Below, piece by piece: positions 1 to 63,933 of a stretch of 64,000 nt of DNA (position 1 is the first letter of the stretch; every line of letters begins with the position of its first letter). The stretch lies in contig CP070837.1 of the NCBI GenBank assembly GCA_020341815.1, forward strand, positions 1,236,575-1,300,574. The letters run 5' to 3'. The notes under the pieces are model-generated. The model had not been told where the DNA came from. It did no database searches and saw nothing but the letters and a program-made list of their open reading frames with translations. The DNA comes from Candidatus Omnitrophota bacterium. GTDB taxonomy: Bacteria > Omnitrophota > Gorgyraeia > JAFGHF01. Made by a program: the position numbers and the translations under genes.

Positions 1-3000
1 TTAATACGCCCCAGTACGGGCACATTGCTTGGCGGCACAGGGACAAGATGGCAGAATGATTTAAAATCAGATGAACCGGATAAAGTCAAATTCAAAGATA
101 AATTAATAAATAACCTCCGTCCAGAATTAAGGGAATACATACATTATTTTAAGGCTGCAGTGTCTGTTGGAAAAACAGGCAAGACTGTTTTAAGCGTAGC
201 TCATATAGATAAAGAAAGCTTAATGCAGTCAGGAATGTTTATAATGACTAATGAGACGAATCGAGAGGTGGCTGAGGAGTTTATAAAGGCAGTTATAGAA
301 GAAGAGCTTGGTGAGCGTGATGCTGAAACGGCAATAGCGAAAACTATGATGGTGGTGCAGCGGATAACGCCACGCCGCGTGCCAACCGAAGAAATGGCGA
401 GGAAATATTTTGAAAGAGAGCCCGATAAAATCCCCAGAAAAAAGAACGGAAAAATTATACATAGACAGGTTAAGAAAATCTATAAATATTGCAGAGAGCA
501 CGCGGGCGAGATAGCTATTGATATGAAGACATTGCTGCCAAAAAATAAATTTGGCAGTTTGTTAACGAAATTAGCCGTATTTTTTAAAGCTTTTTTACCT
601 GCTGGATTGCGAAGAAGACTATTTTGTAACAGCGTCGTATTTGGTCCTGAGAATCATTGGGATTTCATAAAGTATTTTGTGGCAAAAGCCTTCTTCCTTA
701 AGGTGTTAAAGAATGTAATGAGGGATGGCCAGATTCACGACCATTTCAAGCGCCTTGGAAACCAGGATGAGTTAGGCGGCGCCTTGGGAGAAGGAAGGCC
801 TGGGGAATTATCCTGGAAGTGGCTGTTGCATTCAGCCCAATCAAAAGGAGGATTATATGAGTTGATAGATGATACTGAGAAGATGCCTCTTGCAAAATGG
901 GAAGATTATTGGAAGAGCTCTGATTTTAGAAAGCGAATCTTGGGAATTGCCGGTGCAGTAATTGAAGGGGGAAGCACACCGGGTTATACCACTGGCGGTG
1001 GGATAGGTATCTTGGTAAGAAATATAGCTGGTGAAATAATCAGAACTATAGGTGTTTCAGAGCGAGGAAATTCAGCGTTGGGCGAGGATAAGATACAGAC
1101 CAGTATTACCAACTCTAATACAATTACTTACAGTGTGTTGGCAATAGCCTTATCCTGTGGTTTGAGGCCCAGTGATATACAGAAAATGATAAAAGAAATG
1201 GATGGCAATAATGGCCAGCTGCCTCTTGAACAAGAGAGCAGATTAAGCGAAAGGGTAAGATTTTTAGAGCAGCAATTTGTCCCTGTGCGTTATCAGGTGA
1301 AGTTAAGGCCGGGTAATCGTCCGGTAGTGGGCCAGGAGCGCGATATACATGGTTTATTAGGCAGAGGAATGGGCGACTTGCTTGTAATTGGCGAAACTAA
1401 AGATACTTATAAGCAGAAGATACAGCAATTAGATGAATTGTTATTAAAAGAAGAAATTACTTCTGGCGAACACCAGATTAAAGAAGAAAGGATAGCAAAA
1501 GATTTCACATTTTTACCCGGCAAACAATTTGACCATCTGAAGAATAGACAAAGGGCGGAAAAAGCGTTGATAAGGGTTTTGAAATTAGAAAATTCAAGCT
1601 CTCCTATTAATCCTGTAGCAGAAATAGACAGCAGAGATAAGACTGTTGATTCATTTAAGATCCCTGAAGAAATGAAGAAAGGCAAAGAAGGCCTGATTGT
1701 CTATGAAGTTGTTAATATTGGAAAGGTCCGAAAAAGAGGAGAGCCTTGTGTTTGGATTTGGTTTAGGGAAGAAGGTATTGCTGCTTGGGGCAGGGGAGTA
1801 GTTTGTACAAAAGAAATTATATATCCAACTTACACTATGTCCTGGGGCAAATATAGGTTAGAAATTTCCCATGACAGATTTAAGAAAAAAATAGTATTTA
1901 AGATTATTTGTCAGTCTTTTAAAGAAGAAGGGCAAGATAAGTCATTTGAGGCGGTAGTTGTGCCACGGAAATCTTTCTTAAACTCTCTTTGTCCTATTAT
2001 GACAAAGGAAACCTCCAGCCCGGCCATTTCAAAGACACAGACCTTCGGCGTGGTGAAGATTGGTTCTTTCTCCTCCCCAACAGAACAAAAGCCGACTAGG
2101 AAGCAGTTAGTGCTCAAGGCCTATAGCGGAGATAAAAGGCCTTCATTTAGTGAGTTATACGAGATTTTAATAACGGCTAACCCTGCCATAGCCTGTACAC
2201 TGTCCAAAGAAGATTTTCTGAAATGGCTAAAGGAAAGTGGATTGTGTAAAAAGATATGGTCTATGGTGATAAAGCAGATATATAGAGAAGTATTTTGCAC
2301 GGTCGATGTTATCTTGGCGTATCCGCCTAAGATTAAAACGGAAGAAGAATTATATAAAGAATTTAAGGAGAAATATGGCTTTGAAGGACTTAAAGAAGAC
2401 AGTTTTTATAATTTTTTGAACTTTGAATTGGCTTCCAAAAATACGACCTGGCAGAAAGAACGCTATAGAGAAACAAGAAGAAGAAAACGGCTAATATTAC
2501 AAGCTATGTTTCTGGAACGTGACATCAACTCAATAGGTGACTTGCGGGAAGTATTGGAAGAAAAAATAAAAGACTATACATTTACAACTTCTGTTGTTAA
2601 AAAGCTGATGCACTGCACGGGATATACTTTTAAAGCTCTGCGGGAGGAGTTTTCTCCTCTGAAGAAACAGTCACAAGAAAGAAACCGGCGCATATTAGAA
2701 GCTGTGTTTCAAGAACATAAAGTCAGTTCAATAGATGAGCTAAGGGAACTATTGGAAAAAAAGTTAAACTGCAGACTCACAGTTAAGACCGTTGAGGGCA
2801 TGCTAAACAGCGCGAGGTATACTTTGGAAGGCCTGCAGAAGAAGTTTTCTTCCGGGCAGGATAAAGCAGGCAGTCCCGTTAAGTCTATAGAAATATCTGA
2901 TATAGGAAGAACTACGGATACAGTGGACGTTTCCGATGCAATGATGGAAGGAAAAGAAGGCATAATTGTCTATAGACTATTTGATTGCGGTAGTATTAGG

Positions 3001-6000
3001 CAAGAGGCTCGCATTTGGATTTTCTTTAGAAAAGGCCACATTATTGTTTCTGCTACGGGAGACTTAAAGCCTATATCAGAAGGCTGTTGGCACTATTGTC
3101 CATGGTGGAATAGTTATGACTTGGAAATCAGATATCTTTCAGGAGATAAAAAAATACGCTTCCAGGTTCCCCGCGATGAGACTTCTTATAGATCTAAATC
3201 TACTGTACAGGAAAAAAAGTTAAGGTTTAAGATAGAAGTTGTATCTCGGGAAGATGGCGTAAACTCTCTTTGGCCTGTTAAGGGAAAAGAAACCTCCAGC
3301 CCGGCCAATTCAAAGACACAGACCTTCGGCGCAGTGGTGAAGGTCGATTCTTTCTCCTCTATTTCATCCCCTATTTCAATAGCTAAGTTGATAGAAAAAT
3401 GGTATATAAGGCAATTAAAGTCTCCATTTAGTATTTTTGGAGGAGGTTTGCATGCGGAAATTGAGATTAGTATGCGAGCTGTTGGTAAACTAGAAAATAT
3501 AGGTAGTGAGCAAGCTATAAAAGCATTGGCTGAAACATTACAGAATATGAATGCCGATAAGAGTGTTCTTAGTAAAGTGGCGGATGCCTTAGGCAACAAT
3601 ATCTCTTTAGTAAAAAATGACGCTGTTATTAAGGAAAAGATAATTCCTGCGCTAATCAAAGCTTTATTTGAAAAACGTGGTTTAGATAATAGAAGGGATA
3701 TTATTACAAAACATGCAGCTTTATCATTAAATAAAGCCATTGATTATATAGAAGATAATCCTATTATAGAAGAAATAGCAACTAATTTGATTAAGGCTTT
3801 TAGACTTAACCGGGAGGAGGAGATTATCAATGCTTTATTAAAAATCAGAAATTTTGCTATTCCTCTTCTAATTAAAGACTTAAAAAGCCCAGATGGCAAT
3901 GTCCGCCGCTCCGCCGCCAAGGCCTTAAGCTACTTTGGTCCTGAGCCCATTCCTCTTCTAATTAAAGACTTAAAAAGCCCAGATAATGATGTACGTCGGA
4001 AGGTCGTTGAAGCCTTAAGCTACTTTGGTCCTGAGGCCAAAGAAGCTGTTCCTGTATTAGTTAGAACTTTAGCTGATAAAGATAAATTTATTTTTGGCGC
4101 GGCAGTTTATGCCTTATATTGCATAACAGGAATTCCTTCAAACGAGATACTGCATAATTATTTGCAGAAAGGTGCTATTTCTAACGAAATTGCAGAACAA
4201 GCATCAATTAATATCGGTCCTGAAGCGGCAAAAACATTAATAGAGGTAGTTGGAATTAGTAAAAAATATGAACCAGAAGTAGTAAAAATATTGAAAGGTA
4301 ATGGACTAATAGCAAGATTTTTACTTATGGCAAGATTGAATGATAGATTATCTGGGATTGCCGATAATTTGTTGGCACGGCAAGGAGATTATTGTAAGCA
4401 AATATTGAATGACGACACAAGGCAATTATTTAATATCTTTTCTGAAGACATGTCTATAACTTCTCAAGAGGAATGGACAAAAAGATTTATGGATATTAAG
4501 GATGATAAACTATTTACTTATTGCATTATCCGCGCCAGGTATTTTATTAATAATTTTTCTGAGAAATCAAAATGGGATAATTTTATAAATTATTTGGATA
4601 GCAATAAAATCCATAATATCCAGGCGGTAAGCGATTTTCATTGTTATACAGGAGAATGTGTGAAATGTTGTGAAAAATGGCCCGTATCAATGACGATGCT
4701 CGATTTATACCGTATACGGTTTATTTTGCAGCAGCGAAAAGTTAGAAAGAGCCTAAAGGACTTATTTATAGAGAATGTTGATGCAACACATTTCTATATC
4801 TCTATTGTTGATAATGGATTTGTTGAAGTTATTCCTCGATTCAATCAACCATGCCCATTTATAGATTATGAGAATATGAATTGCAGTATCTATGATGTCA
4901 GGCCGTTAATATGCCGTATTTTCCCGGGATATACTATAAATAGTATAGCTAAAGAAAAGACACTGTCTTATAAAAAAGAAGGTCTTAAGTGCATTAAAGA
5001 AGGCATAAATATCTCTGAGGCAAGAAGCACATATCTTTATAAACTCCAAATAGCTAAATGGGAAGAAGAAATGTTTACAATTGACGAAATGGATTTGCAT
5101 ATAGAGGATGAAGGTATTATGAATGATACGCCAAGTTCTTATTGGGATATTGCAGTACAGAAAGATACATATAAAAAAATCATAACAAAGTTGATACAAC
5201 TTGATAATTCGGACAATTTAAATGAATTTCTTAAAAAAGCATTAATATATATTCAGCGGTTTAAGTTATTAGAGTATGGAGAGAATCTATTTGATGAGGA
5301 AATTCAATCCTCTCCTGTAGTCGGCGCAGTGGTGAGGATTGGGTATATAAATAATATAAATAGGGACAGCGACCATTTTAACGACTACCCAACGCAAGAA
5401 CCGAAGCAGGCAAGTACGCCGGATGAAAAGGTGGGCAGTTCGCCCGTGAAAAGTAATATAGTTTATCTGGAGACTTCCAATATCTTAGATGGAAATTGGA
5501 GAGAGAGATTAAACTCTTTGAGGATGTTAAGGCCTAAGAGACCACTAACATTGCTTTGTGGAGGCATATCAAGACAAATTACATCAACATTGTGCAATGT
5601 TACTTCCCATATTTGGACGACAGATACCTTGACTATGCTTACATACTCAGTTCCGCTGGCAGTAATTATCTCAATCTTTCTACGGGATTTGGTCGGATCG
5701 CAGCCTATGCTTAACGCTGCATCGCTGGGAATGCTGGTAATGCTAGCTCCTGTATCCAGAGCCATCGTTAGAAAGACAGGTTTACCTTTATTACCTTTTA
5801 AGGATATATTGATAGGTATTAGATGTAATTTTGGATTGAGGAAATATTTAGCCATAAATATTGAAGGCTGCAGCATATCCTTTAGGCAGGTCATCTTGAG
5901 AATAGGTAACAAAAATAGGATATTTAGAGTTATACTTGGCTATTTCTTTATATATAGTTGTTCTGTCAGGGCTGTGATCAAGAAGCTGTCCAGTGATGGG

Positions 6001-9000: not shown

Positions 9001-12000
9001 TTTGGATTAGAGCTATGTAATAAAGATAGAGAAAGAGGAAACTTCTCTGATGAGGACCTGGCGATTATGGATCAGGCTGATATCGGCCCTCCCGGGGCAA
9101 AAGGGCATCGGTTTAAATGGGATCAGCCGATTACAAATGAGACCATTGGAAAACCCAGGGATATTTCTGTTACTTGCGGCTATATTAAAGACAGCTCAAT
9201 AATTGGCTTGAAAGGCGTGCACGCAGAAGGCGATTTAGCTTTTGGAGATGTCATAACCTTAGGGTTGGGCGGAAGAAAGTGGGCCGGCAGATTAAAATAT
9301 AGGATAAAAGAGACAACATCTCCAGAAAAAGAAACTTCGGAAAACTGGGCAAGGCATTTTTATAATAGCGCAAAGCCAGATTATGTCTTTGGCCAGCATG
9401 AGCAGGCAGAGCAGCATGTTAACCATGCACTGCAGTTAGAATGCGATAATCCAGCATATTTAGCGGCAAAATTTTATCTTGAGGGAATAAGATTATTGCT
9501 GGAGTCACCTTCCCCGGAGGTTCTTGAGAAGGCCTGGAATAAGTTCTGGCAGGCGTTTAAGATATCTGCCGGCCATTTGAGCGAGGTCTTTGATGCTGGA
9601 AAAATACTGAAGAAGATGGTTTTTTATATGACAAACGTGAGCCACAGCACAAGGCTATATTGCAAGACATCGGCAGAGCTCTTTATGGGTATTGAGCTTG
9701 CCTACCTGAGGCAGATTCGCTATTTGCGCGAGAAAGAAACAGCCGTATTAAGATTTGTCTATAGCAAATATTCTCCCGAGCCTGGCTCCCGCGATGATTA
9801 TGGAAAGAGGTTAATATTGGCCCATTTAAAATACTACGGCTTAATAGAGCGGCTTGCCGCAGGCGATAGCAGCCTTGACCAAACTGTGGTGAACGGCGAG
9901 CTAATTCCAATATTTAAAGAGATGCAAGCAGCATTTGCCGGATTGAAGTACAATTGGGATGCCTGGGAGCTTCTATTGCTTGCTCTTAGCTGTTACGGGG
10001 ACACTCCTGTAACTGACTGGGGCGGCCTGGCTATGGGTAATGGTATCTGGCTGGCGGCCCAGGAGGCCCTGAAGGTAGGTTTTAAGCAAAAGGCGATAGA
10101 AGAGTTGGAGAAACTGCTGTTTTTTAATAGATTTAAAGCCATATTTATAGGTAATGCATTGCAGATAACATTGAGACAGCTTGAGGAAGGCAAAACACTA
10201 ACCGCCGATAAGCAGATGGGGATTAGAGAAGCAGAAGAAGCCGCTAGGATGTATTATACAGGGGGCGCAAATTGGCATTTGCTTAAGAAGGCTTTCTTTA
10301 GCTATATCGGCTTAATAATGAAATATGAGGGAAAAAGCGCAAAAGAGATAGCCCAGGTAAAGGAAAGCATTGAGAAGTGGCTCCAGGAGAACAATGTTAA
10401 CCATCTAAGATTAGAGAAAAGAGACGGAGAGGTCTTTGTCTATTTTGAAGACTGGAAATGGAGTTTTGAAAGATTGCCCTTATCAGAATTTATAGAAAAT
10501 AATATAAAGAAGGTATCCCAAAGAAAAGTAAAAACTAAAGTCACCTTTTGGCCAAAAGGGATTTACAGTGATAAAATGGAGTATCGTGCTAAAAGAGTTT
10601 TTACGGTAATTTGTAACGTTACAGGAATTGGCTTAATTTTTGTGAACTTTGGATGGAAATGGGCAACTGTATTCGCTATCTTTTTTGCAGCTTTGACCTG
10701 GATTGCGATAAAGGCCTGGCAGAAGATAAAACTCTTTATAAAATCCAAAAAAGGTGAAGATGCATATTATGATGATTCACAGACAACGGATAATCAAGAT
10801 TCTGGCGATGTATCAAGCAGCCCGATAAATATCTTTGAAAAGGATACCGCGCAGAATATTAGAGAAAAGAATAGAATTAAGCAGCAGCCCTCCAGCTCAC
10901 CGGCTGATAATGCTGAAAATAAGCTTGCTACCTTGACTCTTGAGGTAAGAAAAATACAATATTTATGGAATTTGTATGAATATCATTTTACGCTACCGCC
11001 TTCAGGATTAAAGACTAATATGCTCGGGCATATTGAAGACCCTGAATTTTTTCATGTTTATTTTGAAAATTCATTACACATAAAAGATTTTTTCGCTACT
11101 TTAGCCGCAACAGCAGATGAATCCACCGAAGAGATATTAGAAATATTAAAGAGAAGAAATATTCTATATTTTGCCGCTTTCGCTATCAATGGCTCAAATA
11201 AAGTTCCTATAGGATTCGGTTTATATTATATAGATAAGAATCATCTAGGGCATCATGTAGCAAAATGGATATTCCTCACACTTTCCGGAAACGATGTTTC
11301 AGGATTTATGAAAAATTATTTGCATGTTTTAAAGAAAAATATCGGAATGAAGAGCGAATATTTAGTTTGTAAACTTCCGAAAAGCTTTAAGTGCAGCACC
11401 CTTTCTTTAAATGAAGAGTCTGCAAAGTCGGATCATGTAAATCCATTGAATAGTGGATTTCCTTCTTTAAGCAATCTTCTCAATCCCGATACTTCTAAAT
11501 ATGATGTTTATCTTGCTGGAGAATTAACTGAAGAATTAAAAGAAGTATTTCCTGCCCAGCCTTTCTGGAAATTTTTACAATGTCCGGTTAAAGTTATAAA
11601 AGGGCATCTGAAACTTCTTATTTCTTCCAGTCCTGCGCAGGGAAAACCATTAAATATTCTTTTAGTAAAGCCAAGGCCTAAAAATCAGGAGATAAGCTCA
11701 CTTTGGTATCCGCTTGGTTTGATGAGCGTAGCATCTTTCTTGATAGATTCGGGACATAAGATAAAAATCTTAGATTTACAGATTATGTCAAAAAATTTCA
11801 ATTTCACAGAGTATATTGGGCAATTCCCTCCGGATATCATAGGGATAGGTGCTTTAACAGTTGAAATTGATGAGGCAGAGAAGTTATGCAGGGATGCTAA
11901 GCGTCTATTTCCCGATATGTTGGCAGTGTTAGGGGGAAATCATATTTCTGCTTTACCGGAAGAGGTTATGCAGGATACAGTTTTTGATGTGGGGGTTATT

Positions 12001-15000
12001 GGTGAAGGGGAAGAAACCTTCGCCGAACTTGTTAGGCACATATCGTTAGGCCTAATGGATTTATCACTCATAAAGGGAATCATTTATAAGACAAAAGAGG
12101 GAAAAATTAAAAAGACTGCACCGCGGGAGCTTATGAAAATTGAAAAATATCCTATGGCTTCTGAAAGTATAGATTTATTGGAAGTTAAAAAATATCCATT
12201 ACATAGAGGAGCAATTTTTACATCAAGAAAATGTCCGGGAAGATGTATTTTTTGTGCCTCACAGAAAATATTTGGAGACAGGAAATTAAATGATATCAAA
12301 AGTGCAGAAAGCATCTTTGGGGAGATTATGTATCTATACAATCGCAATATAAGAACAATAGATATATTAGACGATACTTTTACAATAAATAAGCAAAGAG
12401 TATTGAAATTAGCCGATTTAATAGAACAATCAAGAATAAAAATAAAATTCTTTATTTCAACACGGGCGGATTTTATAGATAAGAAGATAGCAGATGCCTT
12501 GAAGCGAATGGGTTGCGTAACTGTCAGGATAGGGGTGGAATCCGGCGACCAAGAATTGTTGGATAAGGTGATTGATAAAGGCATAAAATTACAACAGGTT
12601 ATTGATGCTACAAGGCTGTTACAGGAAATTAAAATATATATGGTGCACTATTTTATATTTGGTCTGCCGGACCAGAATTGGGATAGCGTTAGAAAATCGG
12701 CTCGATTTATGTTAAAAAATCCTCCAAATAGAGTAAATGTTTTTATGGCAGTGCCTATTCCCGGTTCCAGTTTGTATAGCGACCCAAGAATATCTGTAGT
12801 TGACCGAGAGAATTATTCTCTATATTACTCTATGCCATTAAGCACAGAAGCATTTTCTCGCCTTCCTTGCTTTACAAAAACCAATGTGATGAATAGCGGA
12901 AATATAAGTTTGGCCCGTTGGGCATCAATGGAAATCTTTAGAAATAGAAAAAATCCGAGAATTGTTAAGAAATGGATGAAAAAAATAGGGGTTTCCTCCC
13001 CGGTTTCATTTCTGGACAGGGCAGAAAATAAACTCAAGAGTATGGGGTATTTGGTGGAAAATAATCTTTTTTATTTTATATATGAACAAATCCTGCGCCA
13101 TATAAATTTGGACATGAAAAAGGCAGACTTTATGGATACGCGGGATGTTAGGTTAAAGGCAAGAAGGATAATAAATTTAATTTCTGCTATGAAAAATTTG
13201 GGCTATTTAGATAAAAAAGCCGATATAGTGAAATTTCTTGCTTACGGGTTAAAGCCAGAATTTTCTGATGACCTTGAGAATATGAATTACCGAGATCTTA
13301 CCGATGCGGCAATTTGCCAGTTAATTTATATTATATTAGATGGCTTATTGTGTGAAACCGGAGGGGAAATAGCAGTCTTTAACAGCGCTTCCAAACCCGT
13401 GATACTAGTTTTCCCTGATGGAAATATAGATATGCCTGATAGGCTGTGCTTGCTTATAGATATCGATTTTGATAGAGCAGGGCAGGAAATCCTGTATAAA
13501 CAATTTAGGGTGGGCTCCTTCTATCAGCCCCATTTTTATAGCAATAAATATGTAATATTCTTTTTGAAAAAAGGCATAGATATTACAGATTCTACCGGAA
13601 AATATTTGACAGAAAATTGCCCTTACCTTTATTCTGCGCTTCCTTTACGTAAAAATATGGGATTTTTGAATATGATTTGCACAAAACGCGCACAGGCTTA
13701 TGAAGATTTATTGAAAGATGTCCCCGCCGCTATTGCAGAATGTGAGAGGATGATTACAATTAGAGATAAAAAAGATGATAGCGATAGAAGATTTGATAAT
13801 TTGATTTATGGTAAATTCTTTAATCTTTGTAGCCAAAACGGCTGTTATGAGAAAATTAATCCCGAATTGCTTAGAGTTATCCGTGTTTATGCCGGAATTC
13901 TTAGTGAGATTTTTGACGATAATCCCGGCAATATAGATGAAATCGATTTAGTTGTTTTAAAAAAGACATTCAGAAAAAGCGAGGAATTTAAGTTATATGA
14001 GAATTGCGCAAAGCTGGACTGGAATACATTTTGCCGTGGATTAGAAAAAAGTTCTTTAAAGACATATTTCGAAAGGCTTATTAACAAAAAAACTGTATTT
14101 CTTGAAAGAGGAGACAGCTTTGATCCTGAAGTTGAGCGCCAGGTAAATGAATTAACTCGGCTCTTGGGCAATGCAATTATGTGGGTTAGATTAATGGCGT
14201 TCTTTGAGGATGATATTTCTGCAGAGACATTAGGGGTGTCTATAATGCCGAATATGTTTGACACAGTAATTACAAGCTATGCCGGCAGGCGCTCATCCAG
14301 GTCTTCGCCTATAAGGCCTACGGAAGAGCCGCTTTCTCCGATAGCCGCTTGCGCCTTGAAGAATCTTAGACAGACAATTTTACTTATCGATGTATTAGTA
14401 AGAGATAATTATGATAAAAAGGATATGGATATCCCCGATCTAATTTTTAGTAACCTGCAAGCTTTAGAAAAAGATTGTCAAGTAATTGAGAGCGAAGTAA
14501 TTAAAATATTCAAGGCATTATGCATAAAAGATAATTATGATAACATTCTGACATATATGAAAAATTTTCATTCAGAGATTGGGGTAATTTTGTATAGATT
14601 ATTTTTGGTGACTGCAAGAATTGATATCGCTAAAAATATTTACAAAAAACTGGGTGAAGCGATAAGCACCTTATATCTTGTTATTGAAATGACAATTAAT
14701 TTCATTCAATTCCAGACCATAGGCTTTCTGAATTTAACAGAATATTATGAAGTCACAGAGAATCGCAATGAGGAGACGAAGGAAAGTTCATATATTCTTT
14801 ACATTGGAAAAATGCTGCTGGGTATGTTCTGCCACTGGAAAAGACGCTTACGTAAATTAGAGGAAAGAGGCGGGATGAATTTGGCGTTAAGCGACCTAAA
14901 TGTCTTTGGTGAAGCCGGTTCCGGATTATGGGAATTGATAAAGATTTCTTATAATTTGAAAAAGGTGTTTGCAATAGCAGATCATTATTTTCCTCTGCTT

Positions 15001-42000: not shown

Positions 42001-45000
42001 GTTAAAATATATATTGATACGAGAACGGGATATTTAATACAAGGATTTAATTTTGCCAAGGAAGATACCGTAATAATTGAATTTGAACAAGCTTTGACTT
42101 TTGAGGATATAAGAAAATATGCGGATATTTGTGTGTTTGTATATGCAGAGCAACAAATTCAAAAAGATTTATTTATGGGAAGAAGAGAAAACGGGGAAAG
42201 ATACCCAGACCTTACTGAGGAACAAGCAAGAGAAAAATTTAAAGAATTATGTGCAAGGGTAAATGCCAATCCTCTATGTAGAGAAGGGGAACAACACGCA
42301 AATATTATTATTGTTAATACAGCTTATCTTGCCCGTAGTTTGCAGCATGAATTTGGTATCATGAATCCACATACATCTTCCCCGATAGTGAAAAAAGGGA
42401 ACGGTTCTAATTCTTTATCCGCCTCGCCGGTGGAAGGGGAAACATCCCATTCTCAAGATATTAAATTGAGCCAAAGAGAAATCGATTCTTTGATTCAAAA
42501 TTTAAGAACAGATAGTTATTATGAAGTATTTAAATATTATTGGAATAAATTTGCTATATACGGAGAAAAATGCCCTAAAGAACTTATCATAGTGAATAAG
42601 TTGAAGTATAGAATTTTATTGATATCTAATACCGTAGGTCTTCCGGAGTCACCGGAGGATACCTATGGGCGAATTTTAAAGTTTATTGAGTGTAAGATTA
42701 AAAAAGACCTTAATTCTTTAAAAGAAATTAGAGAAACATCGTTATCTTATGATGAATGGCCTCTCGAGCTTAAAAAAATAGTAAAACAAGTACAAAATTT
42801 TTTGTGCAAAATTTTTTGGGAAAGATACAAATTAAACGTTACAATAGATTTAGCACAAAAAATGCTGATAGATAATCAGTTTGGATCATATAATTACGAC
42901 ACTTCCCGTTTAATTGACAAATTTTTTGTGAGTTATGAAAAAGATATCGGCAATTTCATTGTTAAGATTATCCATGAGGCTTTACATGTTTATTTACCCT
43001 TTGGTTTTTTCGATATTTTTGATTTATTATTTTTAGAAGAAGGTTTTGTTTCTGAGGAGACAATTGCATTAGGTCAATTTTTTCAGCAACAAACCGATAT
43101 TCAAATAAAAGAGGATTCTCATCTTTTGAATAGAGAGGTTTATAATAAGATTGAGCGAAAGGTTGGACGAGATGCGGTTATGGAATTTATCCTTAGAGGG
43201 TCAAGAGATTTATTTCTTGATAGATTTGGAGAAAACAGCCATATTGTATTCGCTATCTTAAATTATCTACAGCATTTAGATAACATAAAATGGCCTGAAC
43301 GTATGGAGATAGCAAAGAATATTATAGACAATAGTTGTAATTTGCATGTGTTGAAGAATTTTATTATAAAGGAGAAGGAACAATATCTGTTAGATAAGAG
43401 ATTTGTTTGTAATGTCTGGAATGTCGTTAATAAAAGAGGGACTATTTTCAATCCAAATTTATTGTTATCCAATCCCATAAACGCCGCCGCTTCGCCGGTG
43501 GAAAAAAAAGTAACGGAGACAATCGCAGACTGTCTACAGAAAGGACATTTTGTAAGATTTGATACCATTGCAAAAATGACAGATGTCAAAGTCAATGAGG
43601 TTATGATTATTGCGTCAAAGAGATATCCCAGGCAAAATATAAAGGAAGATGGGATTTGCAGTAAGTCCTATCCGGGCGATAGAAGGGTATCTTCATATGA
43701 AAAATGGTATATAAATTATATTATAAAAAAAGAAGGAGGATGTCCACTAGAGATAGATAAATTTGTGAATCTGACAGAGGAAGGCTTTTATTTCGGGTTA
43801 AAAGAAAAAAATAAGGAACCTCATCAGGGCATCGAAGGTTTTTATGTAGATGGCAAATATCTAAAAGCCAAGAAGGTTTATTATATATCTTCCCCAGTGA
43901 ATAACGCTTTTGTGAAAAAAGGAAATGGTTCTACTTATTTATCCGCCTCGCCGGTGGATAAGTTGAGACCCCGCGCGTCAATCTCCCGATATATTTTAGA
44001 AGGAGAGGTAAACATAAGCCTTTTAAATTATAACTTTCTTATAACTCTTGCACCAGTCCTACCATTGCCATGTTTTGAACTTTACACATTACGCTTTGTG
44101 GATAGAGATGACAAATTCCAAAAGACAGCAGCCGAGATTGAAATATATATTCCTTTTGAAAGACAAGAAGAAATAGGACAAAAGAAAGAAATAGAGATTA
44201 GAGGGTTTGAGATAATGGCCCCTTATTTGCGGAAATCATTAGCTAAATATTTTCTCGTTGTATTTTTAGAAATTTTAGATAAGTATTCTCTTTTTAATAA
44301 TTGTAATTTTAAGAGAGTTAATATAGTGGGCCATCCTTTATTGGCCAAGGAATTACTGGAATTCGGCTTTGAACCTATTGATAAAGAAACACCAATATAT
44401 CTTGATATGGGAAAAACAGGAGAGCATATTTTCGTTTATATACCCAATGATAGTATAAAGGAGAGGCTTGTTTTACCTCCAAATAGTTGTATTAAGTTCC
44501 TTGAAGAAGAGCCCGGCGATAATTATATAAAATTATTTGTCGATACGCCTTATTATTTATCTAACAGCACCAAGATGGACGAGAGATATGAAACGCTTAT
44601 TAAAGAAATTAAGCTTTCTTCTATAGAAGAAGGTAAGGAATGCTTATCTTTTAAACTAAACTCTAAAAGGGAGCCTTATTTTGCAATACTTACTGTTTTA
44701 AGATGTTGGTTAGAAGAAATGGATATTTGTAACAGAAAACATTCTGAGGGGCTGCAACGTTATGCAGCACTAATTGCACAAGAGATGAGATTGAAACCTG
44801 AGGAATGTAAAGCAATGGTGATAGGGGCATTATTGCACGATATAGGTAAAAGAAATATCCCAGAAGAAATCCTTTTAAAGCCCGGAGAGCTCAATAAAGA
44901 AGAAGAAACTATAGTGCATGAGCATTGCGTGGAAGGCTTGGCAATGATTTTGGGAGAAAAAAACTTTGAGTGTATAATTCCCTTTATGACTACAAAATAT

Positions 45001-48000
45001 AAAATTAGAAAGCGCATATTTATATATAACCTTCTGCAAATAATTCATGATTGCATTTTGCATCATCATGAACGTTATGCAGGAGAAGGTTATCCTGCAG
45101 GAGGAAAAAGAGGTAAGGGCATTCCTTTGGCAGCACGAATTATAGCAGTTATAGATCACTTTCATACCTTAATTTCATTAAGGCCATTTAAGCAAGCATT
45201 ATCTTTGGAAGAAGCATTAGAAAAATTAAGGGAGGAAAAAGGTAAGAAGCTGGATCCGGATATAGTAGACCGTTTTATAGAAATTATTAAACAGACTGGA
45301 ATAATTGATTGCTGGGATACGGATATGTGGTGGAGGCCTCGCAGAAATACTAAAAGACATTCTTTAACAAAACTTTTCCATCCTGCGCATTTCCTAATGG
45401 ATGGCACTTCTGCTTCTCTTGTTTCCGCCTCGCCGGTATCTCATGATGTATATGCTGCGGCGGTACATATCCTTGGTTTAAACATAGGGGAGTTAACCAA
45501 AGAGACAGCATGCGAATTTCTTCTCAAATTTTTCCAAACAGAAGATGGAAACATTAGAGAAATAAGAGGTATTCTAAGTTTTAGGGATAAGGATAGCAAA
45601 GAAATAGAAATTACAGATCTAATAAAAGCTATAGAACAGACAGGCCTTGATTCTTTCTATCGTCTTCTGGTTAGGGATCTTGCTGCCATTACCGTGATTA
45701 ACAGTAGTGATAAACAAATAGAATTTTACAGGAAGTATGTCGTTCTGCTGAAATATTGGGAGACATCCTCAAAGGAGGATATAAAGAATGAATGTAAACA
45801 ATGTATGGATGAGATATGTAGGTATTATTTATCTAAAGAGGTACAAAGGCGAAGTGAGAAATTTAAATATGAACATTTTTCCTATCGTGTTCCAATTAAG
45901 GATGACTTGATAACACAGCTTTATGAGTCTTACGATGTTTTAGACGATTTAGTGAAGATGTTGTTTTTAGAGTATATTAAACGCACAAAGGAGTTTCCTC
46001 ATTTTGAGACACTTAGTGAAGAAGATATTAAAAACAAAACTTTAGTTATACTATTTTATCCTTGCGAAGAGAGAGAGCTAAATAGAGGAATTTTACCTCC
46101 CAATATTTTTTCTCTCGCTAACAGTATGGTGGCAGAAGATATCAATGTAGTTTTAGCGCCTATGCCGACCAGACTTGCAGAGAAAAACTTTGCCTATAGG
46201 TATTTAAATACAATAAATGCCTATTTAGATCTAAGAGATGTATATAGTGGCCATCCGGTTATGTATGCATGGATGAATATGCTTGTCGGCAGGTATATGC
46301 GAATTTTTAAACAGTTAGGTATGGAAGAAAAAGAAATCCGTATAAAGTTTAATTTTGGTGTATCAATGTTAGATTCTACTTATCCCGATGGCCTGGCTCT
46401 TAATGAGATGTTAAAGCAAAAATTCCCTGAGTCTAAGGTTTATGTAGGTGGGCCTACTGTATCAGCCGAGCCAGAATTGGCGTTTAAAGAAATGTTTGAA
46501 AAAGTTCCCCATAACCCAAATTTTTTGATAAATGGAGAAGCAGAGATTGTATTCCCCTATGTAGTGAAAACGTTAAATAATTGCAATGGGGCAGAAAAAT
46601 TGGAAGATTCTATTATTCAGAAATTATCCGGATGCCATGGTCTTGCGCTTAAGTTTGGCGGAAAGATATCTACTTTTAGATTTAAAGAAAAAAATATGAT
46701 CAATGAAGAAACGATGAATGGATTACCTTTCTTTCCGGAAATTATCGCTGATGATTCCGCAATTTATTATGTTCCTGAAAGGGGATGCCGACACAATTGT
46801 TTCTTTTGTGCGCGGATCACATCGCATAAAGTGCGTATGTCCAGCGCCGATAAAATATTAAGTGATTTAAGGATGATGGATAGAGCTATAGGAGAGTTTA
46901 GACAGACGCTTTTAAAGCGTATAAAAGATAAAGATATGCTGTGGCTATTTGAATTTCCTTTTAATGTTGAAGATAGAGTTTCGATTTTTGAAATTTCTCT
47001 AGTTTTGTTAAATATATTTGAGAATTTAGGAGAAAAAGGAGAAAACATAATCCCGAATAAGTATACCGAACTAATACAAAAATGGGACAGAGACGGAAAT
47101 ATTGAGAGAATAAAGCTATCTTACAAAAGAGCCGGTGATGATATATTTGAAAAATTACAAATTATTATAAATGAAACAGCCGTAAACTTTAGTATGCATG
47201 AGAAGGTGCATATTGATATTGATGATAATAGTTTTTTGCATGATAAGTTTATAGCGATAAAGGTGCTTAAGGATTTAATAGATAAACCTTTACAGCATAT
47301 CCGGGTTAAAAGATTCCAGGCTCATGTAAAAGATTTTAATACACCAACGGGAGAGCCCGATGAAGAAATTGCTGATGTTATAAGAGAAGTTCTTAATGAA
47401 GAGGATGAAGGAGTAATTTTGGGTCTAGAAAGTGGAAGCAACAGGGCTTTAGCCGATTGGTGCAAAGATTTTGATTGGGAATACGCCCGGCAGCGTATTT
47501 CCTGGCTCGATAAGAAAGTCAAGGTTTTTATAAATCTGATTATTTCAAGACTTGAAAGCAATCCTCAGGAAATTATTGAATCTCTAGGCAACATTGCATT
47601 ATTACTTTTAGATACAGAAAATGTAAAGATAACATATGTATCTTTTCTTATGCCTCTTCGTGGCTCATCAGCAGGTAAAAGATTTAACGAAAATAAGCAT
47701 AAAGGAATTAAACCTTTTAGATTTATGGATCGTTATTTAGAGAAACAAATATATTTCTATGAGTTTCCCGATGATGAGGTAGTGAGAAATGTTCTTCCAA
47801 GCAATTATGAAGATTTAGCTAATTGCATGTATTATATAAAAAGCAAGAAAGAAATCATAGCGACCTTTAAGAAAGTTATGACACTTTTAATGGAGGAAGC
47901 TAAGTTAACTCATCACAAGGATCTACGAAAGATAGAGAAGATATATTTTAAGAAGATACAGAGGCTTGAGCAATATTTAGCTAGCAGCCCTGTAGAGATT

Positions 48001-51000: not shown

Positions 51001-54000
51001 TTTCATGGTAAATACGCTTCCCATTATAGCTATGTAGATAATATTTTAGAGAAAATAAAAACAGCAAATAATTTTTCCGATACCTGTAAGATTATGTTTA
51101 TGTTTTCAGATAACCCAGAACATATCAGTTGCGTCTATATCGATTTTATCGAAATTAATTATTACTTTATGGAAATATTGACTGATGATGAATGGGCTGC
51201 GATTTGCACCCATGAATTAGCACATAAAAAGAAAAATCATTTTGAACAATTGTTAAAACTTAAATGTACACATAAAGGCGCTCTTACTAGAAATAGTGAA
51301 ACATGGAAGAATTTTATAAGAAAGATACAGATTGAAGCCGATAAATTTGGTTTGGAGTATGCAATAAAAGCAGGATATAGGCCTGAAGGAGCAGTTACTC
51401 TGTTAAAGAGAGACCTCGAATATTATCTAAGAAAAGAGGAATATCCCCAGTGGTTAATGAAAGATAGCATAGAGATAGAGTCTATACGTGTATTAAAAGA
51501 TAGAATCGAAGCTCTAAAGAAGCACCCTTCGTTATCTCATCTTGCCGCCTCGCCCGCCACAAAGCTTGGCGAGACTTCGTTGCTTCGCTCCAGCTTGCCG
51601 GTGGATTTAGTTAGCCGGTTCCCTTTGATGTTAATGAGACTGGAAGGATATGACTTCTTTTTGTTCATCAAAGGTAATTTTGAAGCGCGGAAAGATATCC
51701 ATCCTGCCCAAAAGGAGAGGTACTTCTTCTATAAGTGCCCAGGCAATGCGTATTTTAAGCCTGTATTTGCCAATAGTCAGATAAGCGGTTTTGAGGATGT
51801 AAGCAACCCCTCCTCCGGAAACACCTCTAATTTCATAAATTTTGTCAGAAGGAGTTTGCTTAAACCCCAGAGCCCTGCCCAGATTAAGGGGCAGCATAGT
51901 GATGTCTGCTCCAGAGTCAATATACATAGGAGTTTCTATTTTCTTTTGATTAACTTCAAGAATTACTGTGGCAATTGGGCGGAGGATTTTGCCCCAGTGC
52001 AAGGATGGCTGGCGTTCGTATTTAAAACGGATCATCTTTCGGTTATTAGAACGAGTAATCGTTGGTCAGGGACCTTGGCTACAAAGGGAATCTTATGGGG
52101 GTATTTTCTTCTTGCCGCCTTAAGCATTTCTTCAATATTGGTCCCCGTAGCCACAGGATTGCCCTCAATTATAACTACATATTGGTTAATAAGCTTATCT
52201 TTATTTAGCTTAATATATGCTTGTAAATTCTTATCCATTCTCTCTTTCTCCAAGAGCAAATATAACACACCGCCGACATTAAGTCAACAGAGAATTTTTT
52301 CAACTTTGTTAAGACCGGCAGGCAGGCATCGTTCATCGGTTGAAGATAAAATACTATCGACCAACGACCAACGACCATCGACTATCGAATCTGCCGTTTA
52401 CGCTGAGCAAGGCCGAAGTGCCTCGCCGGTGAAGGATGACCGGAACAAGATCGGCTATAGCCTTTATGATCGGGAGCTGCGCAGGTTGTATTTAAACCGC
52501 GGTTGCAGTTATATTAGTCCTAAGGACATTAGAGAGGAAAAGAATTTTTATGAAAAATGGAGAGAAAGCCAAAAAGTACCACGGATTGAAGACAATCAAA
52601 AACTCAGCTTAGTAAAGAGTACCTTGCTTCCAAGAGAATTAGGGGAATGGACTTTAGAGTTTCCCATTGGAACTCTTGACAGTTTTTCTGTAATTATTAG
52701 AGCATTTGGAGGAAATGTTGTAGCTGTTGTGGAAGATGAAAAAAGAAGAAAAACTTTAATAAAATACAATGAGAAATACGATAAGTCGATTGCGAAGTTA
52801 AAAGGAGGAGTTTTATACGATGTCCTTATAGGCCGAATTGATTCAGCGGAAATTGAACAAACTTTAAAAAAGATTATTCAAAAACAAGGTAAGTTCAAAA
52901 ATATAATTAATTTTGGGAGAAATTCAATAAATAGAGCTTTTGCTAATTGCGCAGATTTTAAATCATCTGGAGGATTCTATTGGTTTGATGTGCAATTTAA
53001 TCTGAAAAATTTTGAACTGGATTGCAGTAATAAATGGATAAGATTTATATTGAGATGGATATTCTGGAGGCATGGTTTCGGAGTTAAAGAACTTATTAAT
53101 TTGCCCAGTCCCAACATGCCTGATTTTCTGTATAAAGCCTGTCTTATTAGATTGAAGGATGATAAACCTAGTAAGACTGCAATAATTTCTTCTCCTGCAA
53201 GCAACCGAAAAGAAATTGATCCTTTGATTCAAGATTTAAGAGGTGACAGAAAAAATGATGGTTCTATTGCTCTCGCCTCGCCGGTGAGGATGAAAAATGA
53301 CTCTGGCCCCATTTTTACTACTTCCTCGCCTGTGAAACTAAGAAATCTTATTATAGGGATAATTGAGGCATCAAAAAAAAATAACAACGAAGACATATCG
53401 CATTATCGCAAGCTTATTTTAAAAGAAGCAAAAAGCAGACCTGCTGAGGTTTGCAATTTATTACGTACGGGCTTAGGGAGGCCAGAGATCGATAAAATCT
53501 ATTTAACAATAGCTGAATATTTTCGGCGTGATTATGAAGTCATCGGCTCTTTAGTAAAAACATTCGAAGGGGATAATAAAGATTCAATAGCATTCCTCTC
53601 CGCTCAAAAAATCCTTTTAGAAATAGCAGATTTTTCTATTAAAGGTTCTTTTGGCAGGGTTTTTATCGCAATTAGAAAAAGCTTACTTAAAAAATCATCA
53701 TCTCAGCTGGCTAGAGAATTTGTTTATGCGATGATAGAAAGAAAACATGGCAAATTAGTAAGAAGAATGATACCCATTTTTGGCGGTTCAGCTAAAACCA
53801 GAATTATTTTTGAAGATATCTTTTGGGAAAAATTCGAATTATGCGTTTTTCCTTTAGCATCTGCCTTGGGCGATAAAGTTAAAGATACCAGAAGATGCGT
53901 TAAAAATTTCTTTTTAAAGAAAGGAAAAGAATCAAGAGAATCGTATAAACTAATTAAATCGGAGCTGAATAAGGTTCAAAGGAGGTTTGGAAGATTTCCC

Positions 54001-56190: not shown

Positions 56191-56278
56191 GCATCAAAAC
56201 GTCCTTTACGACTTCCGGGTAGACTTCCGGGGACAGGTCACTTAATTCTGAATCGCAAGGACGGTTCTAATTCTTCCC

Positions 56279-56292
56279 CCGCCTCGCCGGTT
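56279..56292 (+). repeat. Linker-repeat copy located 3' of the giant-gene stop (non-coding context)
   Basis: cgcaaggacggttctaattcttcccccgcctcgccggtt compares with the in-frame copy at 42395-42432 (aaaaaagggaacggttctaattctttatccgcctcgccggtg) and with 43921-43956. Confidence 0.75.
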
Positions 56293-56408
56293 ACAGGAGA
56301 TACAGAAAAACGGTCGCTGTCCCTATTTTCTATAAAGGTATTCTTATTTCAGAAAGTCCCTATAAATAGGGATTAAGTGAAATGAGGTCTTTGGCTTCTT
56401 GCTACCTG

Positions 56409-58658: not shown

Positions 58659-58665
58659 GACAAAT

Positions 58666-62616: not shown

Positions 62617-63933
62617 ATGAAGAAGAACTTGCCTTATTTTTTGGTGATTGCTGCGCTAATATTCTTGATTATCGGTGTGCTTAGCTCGGGGAAAGAAAGA
62701 ACTCCCTCGATTACGCCCGTTGTGGAGCAGAGCTTGTTGGAGAGTAAAGAGATTGCCAAAGAGGTTCAGATCGAAGAACCTGAGGCGCCATTCTCTTTTA
62801 GTACGGAAAGCACCCCTGTCGAAGCTGCCCAGGAGCAAAGGCCTGTTTTTAAATCTTTAGATAAGATCTTCAACGTTTATACGGATAAACGTGCCCCCGA
62901 TAACCATTTTGCCCCTTCGGGCTGGATGGGCGACTTCGGAGACGTAAGTTTAAATGACCAATATATGAAGGAACCTCACTCAGGAAGTACCTCTATCCAG
63001 ATATCTTATTCGGCTGAAAGGAGTCAGGGAGCTGGCTGGGCAGGTATGTTCTGGCAGAATCCGCCGAACAACTGGGGCGAGAAAATGGGCGGTTTTGATC
63101 TTACCGGATACAACAAACTCACCTTCTGGGCCCGCGGGGAAAATGGCGGAGAAGCCATTGAAAAAGTTAAGGTAGGCGGCATCAAGGGCACTTATCCCGA
63201 TTCTCTGGAAGTAGGAATAGGTCCGCTGGTTTTGAGCAACGAGTGGAAGGAATACAGCATTAATCTGGTTGATCAGGACTTGTCCTATGTAAGCGGTGGA
63301 TTTTGTTGGATTAGCGCCAGCCGCCTTAATCCCAATGGCGCAACTTTCTATTTTGACGATATCAGGTTTGAGTATGATCCCTATCTTCAGCCTCAGGTAG
63401 AGAATACACCTGAAGAGATGCCTTTTAATGTTTACACGGAAAGAAGCTCTGTGTTCAATCACTTTATTCCTTCGGGCTGGATGGGCGACTATAGTGATTT
63501 AAAGATTGATGAGGCCTGGACTGCGGATCCTCATTCCGGAGTCACCTGTTTGAGAGTTGTCTATTCGGGAAAAGTTTCGCAAGGTGCCCGCTGGGCAGGT
63601 ATGTTCTGGCAGAATCCGCCGAACAACTGGGGTCAGGTTAAAGATGCAGGTTTTGACTTATCCCAAGCCAGAAAGCTCACCTTCTGGGCCCGCGGGGAAA
63701 ATGGCGGAGAAAGAATTGAGGAATTTAAGATGGGGGGCATCAGCGGCGATTATGGTGATTCCGATACCGCCGGAATCGGTCCGGTTATGCTTACGCCCGA
63801 ATGGAAACAATATACCATCGACTTAAGCGGTAAAGACCTCTCTTATATTATCGGCGGGTTTTGCTTCTCCACCAATGTGGATGTCAATCCTGAGGGTTGC
63901 ATATTTTACCTGGATGATATAAAATACGAATAG
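62617..63933 (+). CDS. Signal-anchored secreted protein with two tandem ~170-aa repeats (putative carbohydrate-binding beta-sandwich modules)
   Basis: RBS GAAGGAGG. The N-terminal hydrophobic helix is LPYFLVIAALIFLIIGVL. Internal duplication: FNVYTDKRAPDNHFAPSGWMGDFGD...GWAGMFWQNPPNNWG...LTFWARGENGGE...YFDDIRFEYD and FNVYTERSSVFNHFIPSGWMGDYSD...RWAGMFWQNPPNNWG...LTFWARGENGGE...YLDDIKYE. Confidence 0.6.
   Translation: MKKNLPYFLVIAALIFLIIGVLSSGKERTPSITPVVEQSLLESKEIAKEVQIEEPEAPFSFSTESTPVEAAQEQRPVFKSLDKIFNVYTDKRAPDNHFAPSGWMGDFGDVSLNDQYMKEPHSGSTSIQISYSAERSQGAGWAGMFWQNPPNNWGEKMGGFDLTGYNKLTFWARGENGGEAIEKVKVGGIKGTYPDSLEVGIGPLVLSNEWKEYSINLVDQDLSYVSGGFCWISASRLNPNGATFYFDDIRFEYDPYLQPQVENTPEEMPFNVYTERSSVFNHFIPSGWMGDYSDLKIDEAWTADPHSGVTCLRVVYSGKVSQGARWAGMFWQNPPNNWGQVKDAGFDLSQARKLTFWARGENGGERIEEFKMGGISGDYGDSDTAGIGPVMLTPEWKQYTIDLSGKDLSYIIGGFCFSTNVDVNPEGCIFYLDDIKYE

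Follow-up and report, generated by a model that had tools for sequence, protein, structure and literature searches.

A recurrent tetrapeptide between the modules of a giant multi-enzyme open reading frame of Candidatus Omnitrophota

Giant open reading frames (ORFs) have been described in Omnitrophota, where West-Roberts et al. 2023 (10.1101/2023.11.21.568195) reported ORFs of up to 85,804 amino acids (aa). Most of these giants have divergent SecA DEAD and preprotein-binding domains together with transmembrane (TM) regions, and many lie near genes for carbohydrate import and secretion. The same study raised cleavage of the products as a question and stated that the cleavage points were unknown. 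Nielsen & Lui 2026 (10.64898/2026.06.07.730766) extended the catalogue to thousands of Omnitrophota proteins of at least 10 kAA (thousand amino acids), with a maximum of 147,155 aa and sets of 916 and 5,761 proteins of this size against 46 in West-Roberts et al. 2023, and defined a 'multi-enzyme metabolic cluster' class and a SecA_DEAD architecture cluster; the recurrent Pfam families include radical S-adenosylmethionine (SAM), ROK, HD-domain, HEAT and TPR, and glycoside hydrolase family 2 (GH2) is found in the flanks. Here we analyze a stretch of 64,000 nucleotides (nt) from a Candidatus Omnitrophota bacterium (the window; GCA_020341815.1, contig CP070837.1, positions 1,236,575 to 1,300,574), in which one stop-free frame occupies positions 1..56190 of the + strand. 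An earlier note on this DNA had called genes of such size extremely rare and their products uncharacterised, which stands for prokaryotes in general and not for Omnitrophota, given the two studies above. Indeed, by its sequence the window giant is a member of the described multi-enzyme/SecA_DEAD class, fitting the description of Nielsen & Lui 2026 feature by feature, so that the giant ORF itself is an already known phenomenon and, taken alone, would be one more example of it. The value of the locus lies instead in a short punctuation motif, [S/A]-S-P-[V/A/I], that recurs between the modules of the protein. The words linker and polyprotein are absent from both studies, motif is used once in West-Roberts et al. 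2023 and not at all in Nielsen & Lui 2026, and cleavage is not mentioned in the latter; by comparison with these two sources the punctuation appears to be previously undescribed. Overall, we consider it very probable that the window holds one real giant gene of Candidatus Omnitrophota, of the multi-enzyme type, with modules delimited by this motif.

A giant frame punctuated by a tetrapeptide

Frame +1 runs without a stop codon over nt 1-56187 and closes with a TAA at 56188-56190, giving 18,729 codons plus the stop. All 85 stops of this frame in the window lie 3' of nt 56190, and each of the other five frames carries between 655 and 2000; in the other + frames, stops make up 8-9% of codons, with 15-43 per 300 codons in individual 900-nt blocks. 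Based on the base composition of the ORF, 7.8% of codons would be expected to be stops, and the probability of 18,729 successive stop-free codons is about 1e-665. Moreover, every 900-nt block of the ORF is coding-like, with a purine fraction at codon position 1 of 0.57-0.71 and a higher GC content at position 1 than at position 2. Stop counts and coding signature thus bear out the view of the earlier note that a single genuine giant gene underlies the stop-free frame. No stop precedes the frame, which is open from the first nucleotide of the window, and the gene is therefore truncated at its 5' end by the window edge, again as the note had proposed. It had also expected the true gene to be longer, which holds, although the extension is probably small. 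P0121 (GCA_041643175.1), a protein 64% identical to the first module of the giant (M00), starts about 278 residues before its match to window residue 1, and has hydrophobic N-terminal segments, an in-frame stop ahead of its start and a separate gene upstream. If the window gene starts as P0121 does, its start would lie about 280 codons upstream of nt 1 and its total length would be about 19,000 codons.

In an unbiased k-mer scan of the translated frame, the leading tripeptide was SSP (51 copies vs 2.7 expected) and the top tetrapeptides were SSPV (18 vs 0.13 expected), SSPA (17 vs 0.14), SSSP, ASPV and SSPI. Written as [S/A]-S-P-[V/A/I/T], the motif has 61 copies where about 1 would be expected, or 63 if Gly is admitted at position 1; the residues that flank it show a weak bias. 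The 63 copies of [S/A/G]-S-P-[V/A/I/T] are all in frame +1 and lie on the + strand within 1597..55593, with their first residues at aa 533, 672, 691, 957, 1099, 1122, 1770, 1813, 2069, 2076, 2096, 2110, 2676, 2695, 3606, 3632, 3876, 4332, 4768, 5052, 5086, 5106, 5431, 5659, 6096, 6521, 6556, 7117, 7390, 8075, 8486, 8780, 9210, 9509, 9527, 10835, 10992, 11340, 11382, 12033, 12109, 12306, 12637, 13599, 14126, 14141, 14497, 14630, 14649, 15143, 15995, 16011, 16519, 16874, 16908, 17183, 17474, 17730, 17759, 17775, 18033, 18519 and 18528 (nucleotide position = 3*(aa-1)+1).

The placement of these copies follows the domain organization of the protein. None of the 63 falls within a domain envelope, against 8.7 expected (P ~9e-5), and together they divide it into 43 modules of 100 aa or more, with short spacers wherever copies stand close together. 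The median module of 355 aa is the size of an ordinary bacterial protein, and most modules are orphans. Copies are sometimes doubled, leaving short spacers, as at aa 2069-2113, where four stand within 45 aa. Where a family profile can place the start of a module, that start lies shortly behind the motif: a BchE-type radical-SAM profile begins, at profile position 2, 10 aa after the SSPA at aa 3876. Two paralogous modules that are 40% identical (M17 and M23) have both retained the motif on either side. The closest relative of the SecA-like module of the giant is a free-standing protein of 1,423 aa (P0001; 36% identical), which aligns through the N-terminus of the module with KIGFEP kept, but which reads ESDNL where the giant reads SSSPV and has 0 motif copies in its 1,423 aa. 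Similarly, ordinary flanking genes from three genomes hold 0 strict copies in 2.4-3.7 kAA, the only related string being a conserved GSPA in a permease. We infer from this distribution that the motif is an inter-module signal, acting in processing or as a hinge.

Related giants carry the motif as well. A giant of 24,023 aa at the same syntenic position in another assembly (L010; ENA ERZ23498930 scaffold_22) ends in a 2,448-aa tail that has no BLASTP similarity to the window protein, and yet this tail contains 10 motif copies vs 0.32 expected; its Pfam domains (an M23 peptidase, Ig_N_CWD1 and two methyltransferases) all lie between motif copies. The truncated tails of two further giants, L015 and L016, have 2 copies in 533-622 aa vs 0.03 expected. 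In ORFs with an M00 homologue, the homologous junction reads ESPV in L004 (Ca. Omnitrophica CG02) and nothing comparable is present there in L008. A 30-column profile built from 61 linkers and run with HMMER against 1.84 billion representative proteins returned no giants, the profile being too weak per copy to judge generality. Three weak matches to this profile, an RCC1-like repeat protein, a plant-like kinase and a low-complexity protein, were set aside as irrelevant.

Linker DNA, proposed mechanism and rival explanations

Codons at the motif were tallied at 75 sites, drawn from the window, L010 and L015. The invariant Ser is encoded by TCN at 59 of these and by AGY at the other 16, the Pro by all four of its codons, and position 4 by 12 different codons. 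This mixture indicates that the peptide is what all copies share. A DNA consensus, TCC-AGC-TCG-CCK-GTN, is also common to the window, L010 and L015. TCG is the rarest Ser codon of the ORF (6-8%, and 10% in flanking genes), and it makes up 41-47% of codons at the invariant Ser; CCG is likewise enriched at the motif Pro, at 44% vs 21-30%. A simple preference of the host for the motif codons would fit AGC, TCC and GCC and was ruled out by the excess of TCG. In the 3' third of the ORF, the 12-mer GCCTCGCCGGTG occurs 11 times on the + strand with at most one mismatch, vs 0.02 expected, and its exact form recurs there between unrelated flanks. A search at the DNA level retrieved copies almost exclusively from the + strand.

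Longer linker elements recur too. A 74-nt element of family D2 at 3286..3359 (+ strand), which encodes KETSSPANSKTQTFGAVVKVDSFSS, has a copy at 6217-6290 with 99% identity (73/74) and another at 2005-2078 with 78%, each between unrelated flanks. To judge from its sequence, this linker behaves like a small in-frame element that is mobile or subject to gene conversion. It also contains a perfect 7-bp inverted repeat, GACCTTC...GAAGGTC, and related sites are found at 5305-5334 and 8023-8052. A 47-nt element of family D10 at 42388..42434 (+ strand), encoding VKKGNGSNSLSASPV, has a 91% copy at 43912-43958 and a 70% copy beyond the stop codon, at 56248-56294. After the TAA, frame +1 remains open for another 61 codons (56191..56373, + strand), and this extension contains a linker that reads '...KDGSNSSPASPVTG...', with the 12-mer GCCTCGCCGGTT at 56281-56292; it is this post-stop linker, KDGSNSSPASPV, that matches the 47-nt elements at 42388 and 43912 with 70% identity. 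The TAA at 56188-56190 is also present in an independently assembled contig from the Logan collection (L001). The ORF probably extended to 56371-56373 before a nonsense change in the recent past. Taken together, the linkers appear to comprise a few families related by descent, copied or recombined as units, and since all of them are in one frame, modules could be added or swapped with the frame intact. No consistent RNA structure was found in eight linkers that were folded (z-scores -3.4 to +1.7). A Shine-Dalgarno sequence with a start codon follows the motif in 9/63 cases vs 7.2 +/- 2.5 in random sequence, and Met is not enriched after the motif either.

These observations suggest a mechanism by which the giant could work and grow. 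One promoter and one ribosome-binding site would yield a fixed 1:1 set of activities, made as a polyprotein tethered to the membrane at its cytoplasmic face. The tetrapeptide would be the signal between modules, and we would favor a protease recognition site over a hinge or modification site, and either of these over a translational pause. This preference derives from the four-residue specificity of the motif, the doubled sites with their spacers, the absence of the motif from free-standing P0001 and the processing already suspected in the literature. Modules would be gained or shuffled from linker to linker while the frame stays open. In its full form, the proposal is that [S/A]-S-P-[V/A/I] would be the missing processing signal, and that the giants of an Omnitrophota lineage would be bacterial polyproteins in the true sense: enzymes and regulators of ordinary size, dozens of them from one ORF, would be released or functionally separated at the tetrapeptide, and the genes would grow by in-frame, linker-to-linker capture of whole genes. 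We offer this as a tentative reading, possible and rather doubtful. If it were true, the giant gene would be a stop-codon-free substitute for an operon in an ultra-small cell. A signal confined to the gaps between domains, which recurs in an unrelated giant at the same locus of another genome and is missing from free-standing P0001, would be of use: it would offer a rule for cutting giants into modules for structure prediction, would point proteomics to SSP as a place to look for modifications or neo-termini, and would give a hint of how giant genes can lengthen and never gain a stop codon. It also makes directly testable whether and where giant proteins are cut.

Several points weigh against this polyprotein reading, or against parts of it. 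Pro beside the scissile bond is disfavored by most endopeptidases, and the window part of the giant has no convincing protease domain and only four HExxH motifs. TCG stands at the invariant Ser in 35/75 sites (47%) vs a background of 6-10%, and the two codons preceding that Ser favor C at the third position; part of the motif signal may therefore come from a nucleotide-level effect or from shared descent of the linkers. The HEAT-solenoid tail of another syntenic giant, L013, is without motif copies, and the more distant ORFs with M00, L006 and L008 (2.8-3.7 kAA), show no enrichment of the motif. Because enrichment is seen in L010, L015 and L016 and not in L006, L008 or L013, the motif is, on these sequences, a trait of the multi-enzyme giants of a sub-lineage and not of the phylum as a whole. 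Support from an independent assembly is confined to the 3' 1.7 kb of the ORF and does not extend to the other 54 kb. Transcription and translation as a single unit are assumed by analogy with related organisms (10.1101/2023.11.21.568195), and the cytoplasmic topology draws on domain types and a crude hydropathy scan.

The codon data bear on the idea that the motif belongs mainly to the DNA, as a recombination junction or scar or as a small in-frame mobile linker whose encoded peptide is merely tolerated. We regard this as a substantial possibility, if not a probable one. It would account for the 99% identity of the 74-nt linkers at 3286 and 6217 between unrelated flanks, for the copy of the 47-nt family past the stop, for the exact recurrence of GCCTCGCCGGTG and for the excess synonymous information, that is, TCG and the preceding third-position C within a consensus common to L010 and L015. 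It does not account for a peptide that is conserved across linker families through such different Ser, Pro and position-4 codons, for the confinement of all 63 copies to frame +1 and of DNA-search copies almost entirely to the + strand, or for the fact that paralogues now 40% identical have each retained the motif on both sides. The polyprotein reading and a DNA-level origin of the motif are, however, compatible, and both can hold. The same codons could instead mark a pause in translation that assists co-translational folding, with rare TCG-CCG and the Pro slowing the ribosome at each module boundary and no cleavage taking place. The rarity of TCG elsewhere, the enrichment of CCG and the position of the sites exactly between modules agree with such a pause, which we nevertheless find unlikely: half of the sites have neither TCG nor CCG and still keep the peptide, and a pause would require neither a specific four-residue peptide nor its absence from free-standing P0001.

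A different kind of explanation makes the giant an extracellular, prey-directed effector for adhesion or cell-wall degradation, as proposed for the Archaeovorin/Dockerin-type giants, with the linkers as glycosylated Ser/Pro spacers. Low-complexity linkers rich in Ser, Ala and Pro are typical targets of O-glycosylation in some bacteria, the sugar importer and GH2 gene in the flank match the reported neighborhood of such giants, and a SecA-like module is present. However, the 18.7 kAA gave no Pfam or NCBIfam match to dockerin, carbohydrate-binding module, TSP3, lectin or glycoside hydrolase, the radical-SAM/Fe-S, ATP-dependent ROK, SecA ATPase, HD-GYP and helix-turn-helix (HTH) modules need cytoplasm, and the hydrophobic segments are few, which makes an exported effector distinctly unlikely. 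There remains the question of whether the ORF could be an artefact, either of chimeric assembly or of read-through of a decayed pseudogene, or an operon with internal starts, and this we consider very improbable. In its favor are the confinement of the matching independent assembly to the 3' end, leaving the 5' 54 kb, the interruption of the short-read assemblies of relatives exactly where the giants lie, and two stretches of odd composition with the weakest coding signal (aa ~1850-2060 and ~17190-17470). Against it, 18,729 stop-free codons are explicable neither by chance nor by decay, and the coding signature runs through every block. Tandem Repeats Finder (TRF) detected only two tiny arrays in the ORF, a HEAT array of 2 copies with a 90-nt period and one 33-nt array, and the longest near-exact internal DNA repeat is the 74-nt element at 99% identity; with no long repeats, nothing in the sequence invites repeat-driven misassembly. 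The independent contig L001 (Logan, run SRR14739666, 6,383 bp) matches window 54528-60910 at 99.875%, its eight differences all within the downstream binding-protein gene, so that the last 1.66 kb of the ORF, the stop codon and the junction with the transporter are reproduced independently. Long ORFs also occupy the same syntenic position in independent assemblies, upstream of genes for PilZ, a solute-binding protein, two permeases and GH2; besides L010, they include L013 (GCA_016783405.1; at least 8,002 aa, truncated by its contig) and the truncated tails of four ENA contigs (L015-L018). Finally, neither Shine-Dalgarno sequences with start codons nor Met are enriched after the motif.

Modules of the giant and neighboring genes

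To identify domains, the protein was cut into 24 segments and scanned against Pfam and NCBIfam at E<=0.01. The earlier note had seen dozens of different domains; those recognized amount to about 12 families, with three HTH matches among them, whose envelopes cover 13.8% of the residues, and about 86% of the protein matches nothing. The first module, M00 (1..1596, aa 1-532, + strand like all features below), has a GGxGxR motif at aa 11-16 and is without an assigned function, with no match in Pfam, NCBIfam or the PDB. It is the sole module with detectable homologues in other long ORFs of Omnitrophota, being 36% identical in L004 and 34-36% in L006 and L008, in addition to P0121. An AlphaFold2 model of M00 from a 3-sequence alignment had a mean predicted local distance difference test (pLDDT) of 43.9 and was unusable. 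M00 is followed by HEAT repeats at 3859..4116 (aa 1287-1372; PF13646, E=4.9e-17), which coincide with the 90-nt TRF array, and by a putative Zn/Fe-chelating CxxCxxCC domain at 4642..4941 (aa 1548-1647; PF03692, E=7e-10). A B12-binding and radical-SAM module lies at 11656..12819 (aa 3886-4273; PF02310, 1.3e-21; PF04055, 1.1e-22; TIGR02026, positions 2-400/497), and a second, divergent B12/radical-SAM-like module at 46399..46884 (aa 15467-15628; TIGR04014, 2.5e-8; PF04055, 1.8e-3). The ROK sugar-kinase-like module at 22318..23232 (aa 7440-7744; PF00480, 3.4e-10) has its halves in reversed order: the C-terminal-type half, recognized by an allose-kinase profile (NF007251, positions 219-301, at aa 7440-7525), precedes the N-terminal-type half, recognized by a glucokinase profile (TIGR00744, positions 42-135, at aa 7622-7721). 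This order suggests a circular permutation or the remnant of a tandem duplication. A TPR scaffold module (26389..27600, aa 8797-9200; TPR_1, 2.4e-31, and related families) is bounded by the motifs at aa 8780 and 9210.

The divergent SecA-like ATPase at 28840..31158 (aa 9614-10386) has DEAD, PPXD and P-loop regions, with Pfam matches at aa 9614-10117 (PF07517, 6.5e-45; PF21090, 2.1e-26; PF01043, 9e-11), aligns with NF006630 (PRK09200) over positions 51-764/789 and is ~32% identical to canonical SecA. SecA_SW (PF07516) was not reported for the giant at E<=0.01, yet the PRK09200 alignment reaches position 764/789; P0001 has PF07516. P0001 itself is encoded at positions 10001-14272 of L002 (ENA ERZ24794656 NODE_11304) as a fusion of a SecA-like protein with Fis-type HTH domains, and adjoins an rve_3 integrase/transposase gene. 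Downstream of the SecA-like module are a winged-helix/HTH segment at 34771..34917 (aa 11591-11639; PF13412, 1.6e-5), a Fis-type HTH_8 segment at 39004..39105 (aa 13002-13035; PF02954, 4.7e-5), and an HD-GYP-type (HD_5) phosphohydrolase at 44737..45297 (aa 14913-15099; PF13487, 2e-30; NF053512, 1.1e-27). The last recognized domain is the C-terminal domain of a KdtA-like glycosyltransferase (GT) of GT-B type at 54952..55425 (aa 18318-18475; NF004389, 2.1e-9). The HExxH motifs of the giant start at aa 13676, 14325, 15733 and 17071. One lies in an M48-like segment at 51166..51246 (aa 17056-17082), where the motif scan is accompanied by a weak match of 27 aa only (PF01435, 5e-6). Another (HELVH, first His at aa 13676) stands amid three hydrophobic, TM-like segments at 40858..41244, a region found by hydropathy and motif scan with no family match, which is a candidate membrane metalloprotease-like module.

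In a Kyte-Doolittle scan, about 14 peaks reached >=1.7, some of them doubtful; those that stand in pairs or clusters at aa 3533-3572, 13620-13748 and 17369-17408 are convincing. The recognizable modules are of cytoplasmic type, comprising Fe-S/SAM chemistry, an ATP-dependent kinase, an ATPase, a c-di-GMP-type phosphodiesterase and DNA-binding HTH. We infer from these features that the giant is tethered to the membrane at the cytoplasmic face, which we favor over an extracellular effector; the same arrangement is given for the TM-only class in Nielsen & Lui 2026 (10.64898/2026.06.07.730766). Only five module pairs, dispersed along the protein, are internal paralogues, and the family of M17 and M23 had no homologue in a word-indexed search of 5.8 billion proteins.

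Composition sets the giants apart from their surroundings. The ORF has a GC content of 36.3% (1-56187), where the earlier note had estimated about 34%, and the flanking DNA (56191-64000) has 46.0%, a difference of about 10 points. The giant part of L010 (1-7347) has 37.7% vs 48.8% for the rest of the contig, and the giant tail of L015 (1-1871) has 37.3%. GC content appears in West-Roberts 2023 in the legends of genome diagrams only, and the gap between giants and their neighbors is not discussed there or in Nielsen & Lui 2026. Relaxed selection, foreign origin and selection on a very long transcript are possible causes. Within the ORF, a 911-aa module (aa 2695-3605) has a GC content of 45-48% over window positions 8083-10000, clearly above the rest; it has no match in Pfam, NCBIfam or the PDB, and may be a more recently captured gene. 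The two stretches of odd composition (nt ~5550-6180 and ~51570-52410) are flanked by motifs and free of stops. Depleted in Lys and Glu and enriched in Ser, Phe, Arg and Cys, they show the weakest purine signal at position 1 and contain hydrophobic segments, and may represent either anchors in the membrane or non-native sequence that was captured. At 50-52 kb the GC skew falls to about 0. Rfam at gathering thresholds had no match in the window.

Downstream of the giant lies a sugar ATP-binding cassette (ABC) importer, identified with Pfam, with a solute-binding protein at 56491-57780 (SBP_bac_1/8) and permeases at 57777-58658 and 58666-59523 (BPD_transp_1). The second permease falls in a 90%-identity cluster whose members are named Ca. 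Omnitrophota or Omnitrophica, including 'carbohydrate ABC transporter permease [Candidatus Omnitrophota bacterium]'; the contigs of further members of this cluster end before the giant, and short-read contigs of relatives typically stop right at the giant gene. A gene for a DUF6036-like nucleotidyltransferase is also found downstream, as is one for a GH2-type glycoside hydrolase of 767 aa (60201..62504; PF02836, 2.4e-15), which is syntenic in L010, L011, L013-L016, L019 and L022. Importer and GH2 together are syntenic in at least 7 other loci. The 438-aa protein encoded at 62617..63933 is identical to UCB56793.1 (JSV30_06270, 'MAG: hypothetical protein', Candidatus Omnitrophota bacterium) and has no Pfam match. 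It contains an internal two-fold repeat of ~185 aa (families D7, D13 and D17) with the shared segment WAGMFWQNPPNNWG, recurs in synteny at several loci, and may represent a new pair of carbohydrate-binding modules.

In relatives (L010-L022), the giant is separated from the ABC importer by one to three small PilZ-domain genes, and several of these relatives also encode a PilZ-HTH-ROK fusion farther downstream. Between giant and importer, the window holds only a 295-nt post-stop spacer and no gene for PilZ. By eye, 56411-56491 contains TTGACA, then TAATCT ~17 nt on, and an AAGGAGA ribosome-binding site before the binding-protein gene, which a simple promoter scan did not list. With these promoter-like hexamers and the ribosome-binding site, the transporter looks like a transcription unit apart from the giant.

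Comparison with known systems

Among described systems, the multi-enzyme/SecA_DEAD giants are the closest. The window giant shares with them the Omnitrophota host, a single ORF of more than 10 kAA with many unlike Pfam families of which none dominates, the presence of radical SAM, ROK, HD-domain, HEAT and TPR, a divergent SecA DEAD/PPXD, putative TM segments, a mostly unannotated sequence, and adjoining GH2 and carbohydrate uptake genes. It differs in its modest size, ~19 kAA against a class maximum of 147 kAA, and in the lack of type II secretion system or pilus genes within its 7.8-kb downstream flank. In Velamenicoccus archaeovorus and its relatives, the Archaeovorin/Dockerin-type giants (West-Roberts 2023, citing Kizina 2022) are also Omnitrophota giants with a SecA-like module, set near TM segments that are putative in the window giant, and post-translational cleavage has been proposed for them too. 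The window giant, in contrast, has no match to dockerin (PF00404), TSP3 (PF18884), glycosyl hydrolase, or C39 or S8 peptidase in its 24 segments at E<=0.01; its only glycosyltransferase is KdtA-like, and its content is of cytoplasmic and not extracellular type.

Other very large proteins resemble it less. Adhesin-type repeat giants (RTX, Bap and LapA-like proteins, and the giants of Chlorobium chlorochromatii) are likewise very long single bacterial ORFs, but consist of tens to hundreds of copies of one repeat, where the window giant has only its 2-copy HEAT and 33-nt arrays. The earlier note was thus right to separate it from this type: the protein is non-repetitive and concatenates unlike enzyme, regulator and ATPase modules. 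Nonribosomal peptide synthetase and polyketide synthase megasynthases are built on a repeating order of condensation, adenylation, ketosynthase (KS), acyltransferase (AT) and carrier domains, which is not found in the window giant, and none of these families had a Pfam or NCBIfam match across the 24 segments. Viral polyproteins and MARTX toxins, multi-effector polypeptides whose parts are set free at short consensus sites, resemble it in organization: unlike, protein-sized modules are joined in one ORF with a short consensus at the junctions, and some junctions have doubled sites with a short spacer peptide between them. The window giant is ~10x larger, its modules are metabolic and regulatory and not replicative or toxic, and its window sequence shows no clear protease domain. 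The resemblance to polyproteins and MARTX toxins would therefore concern a possible working logic, not membership in either family.

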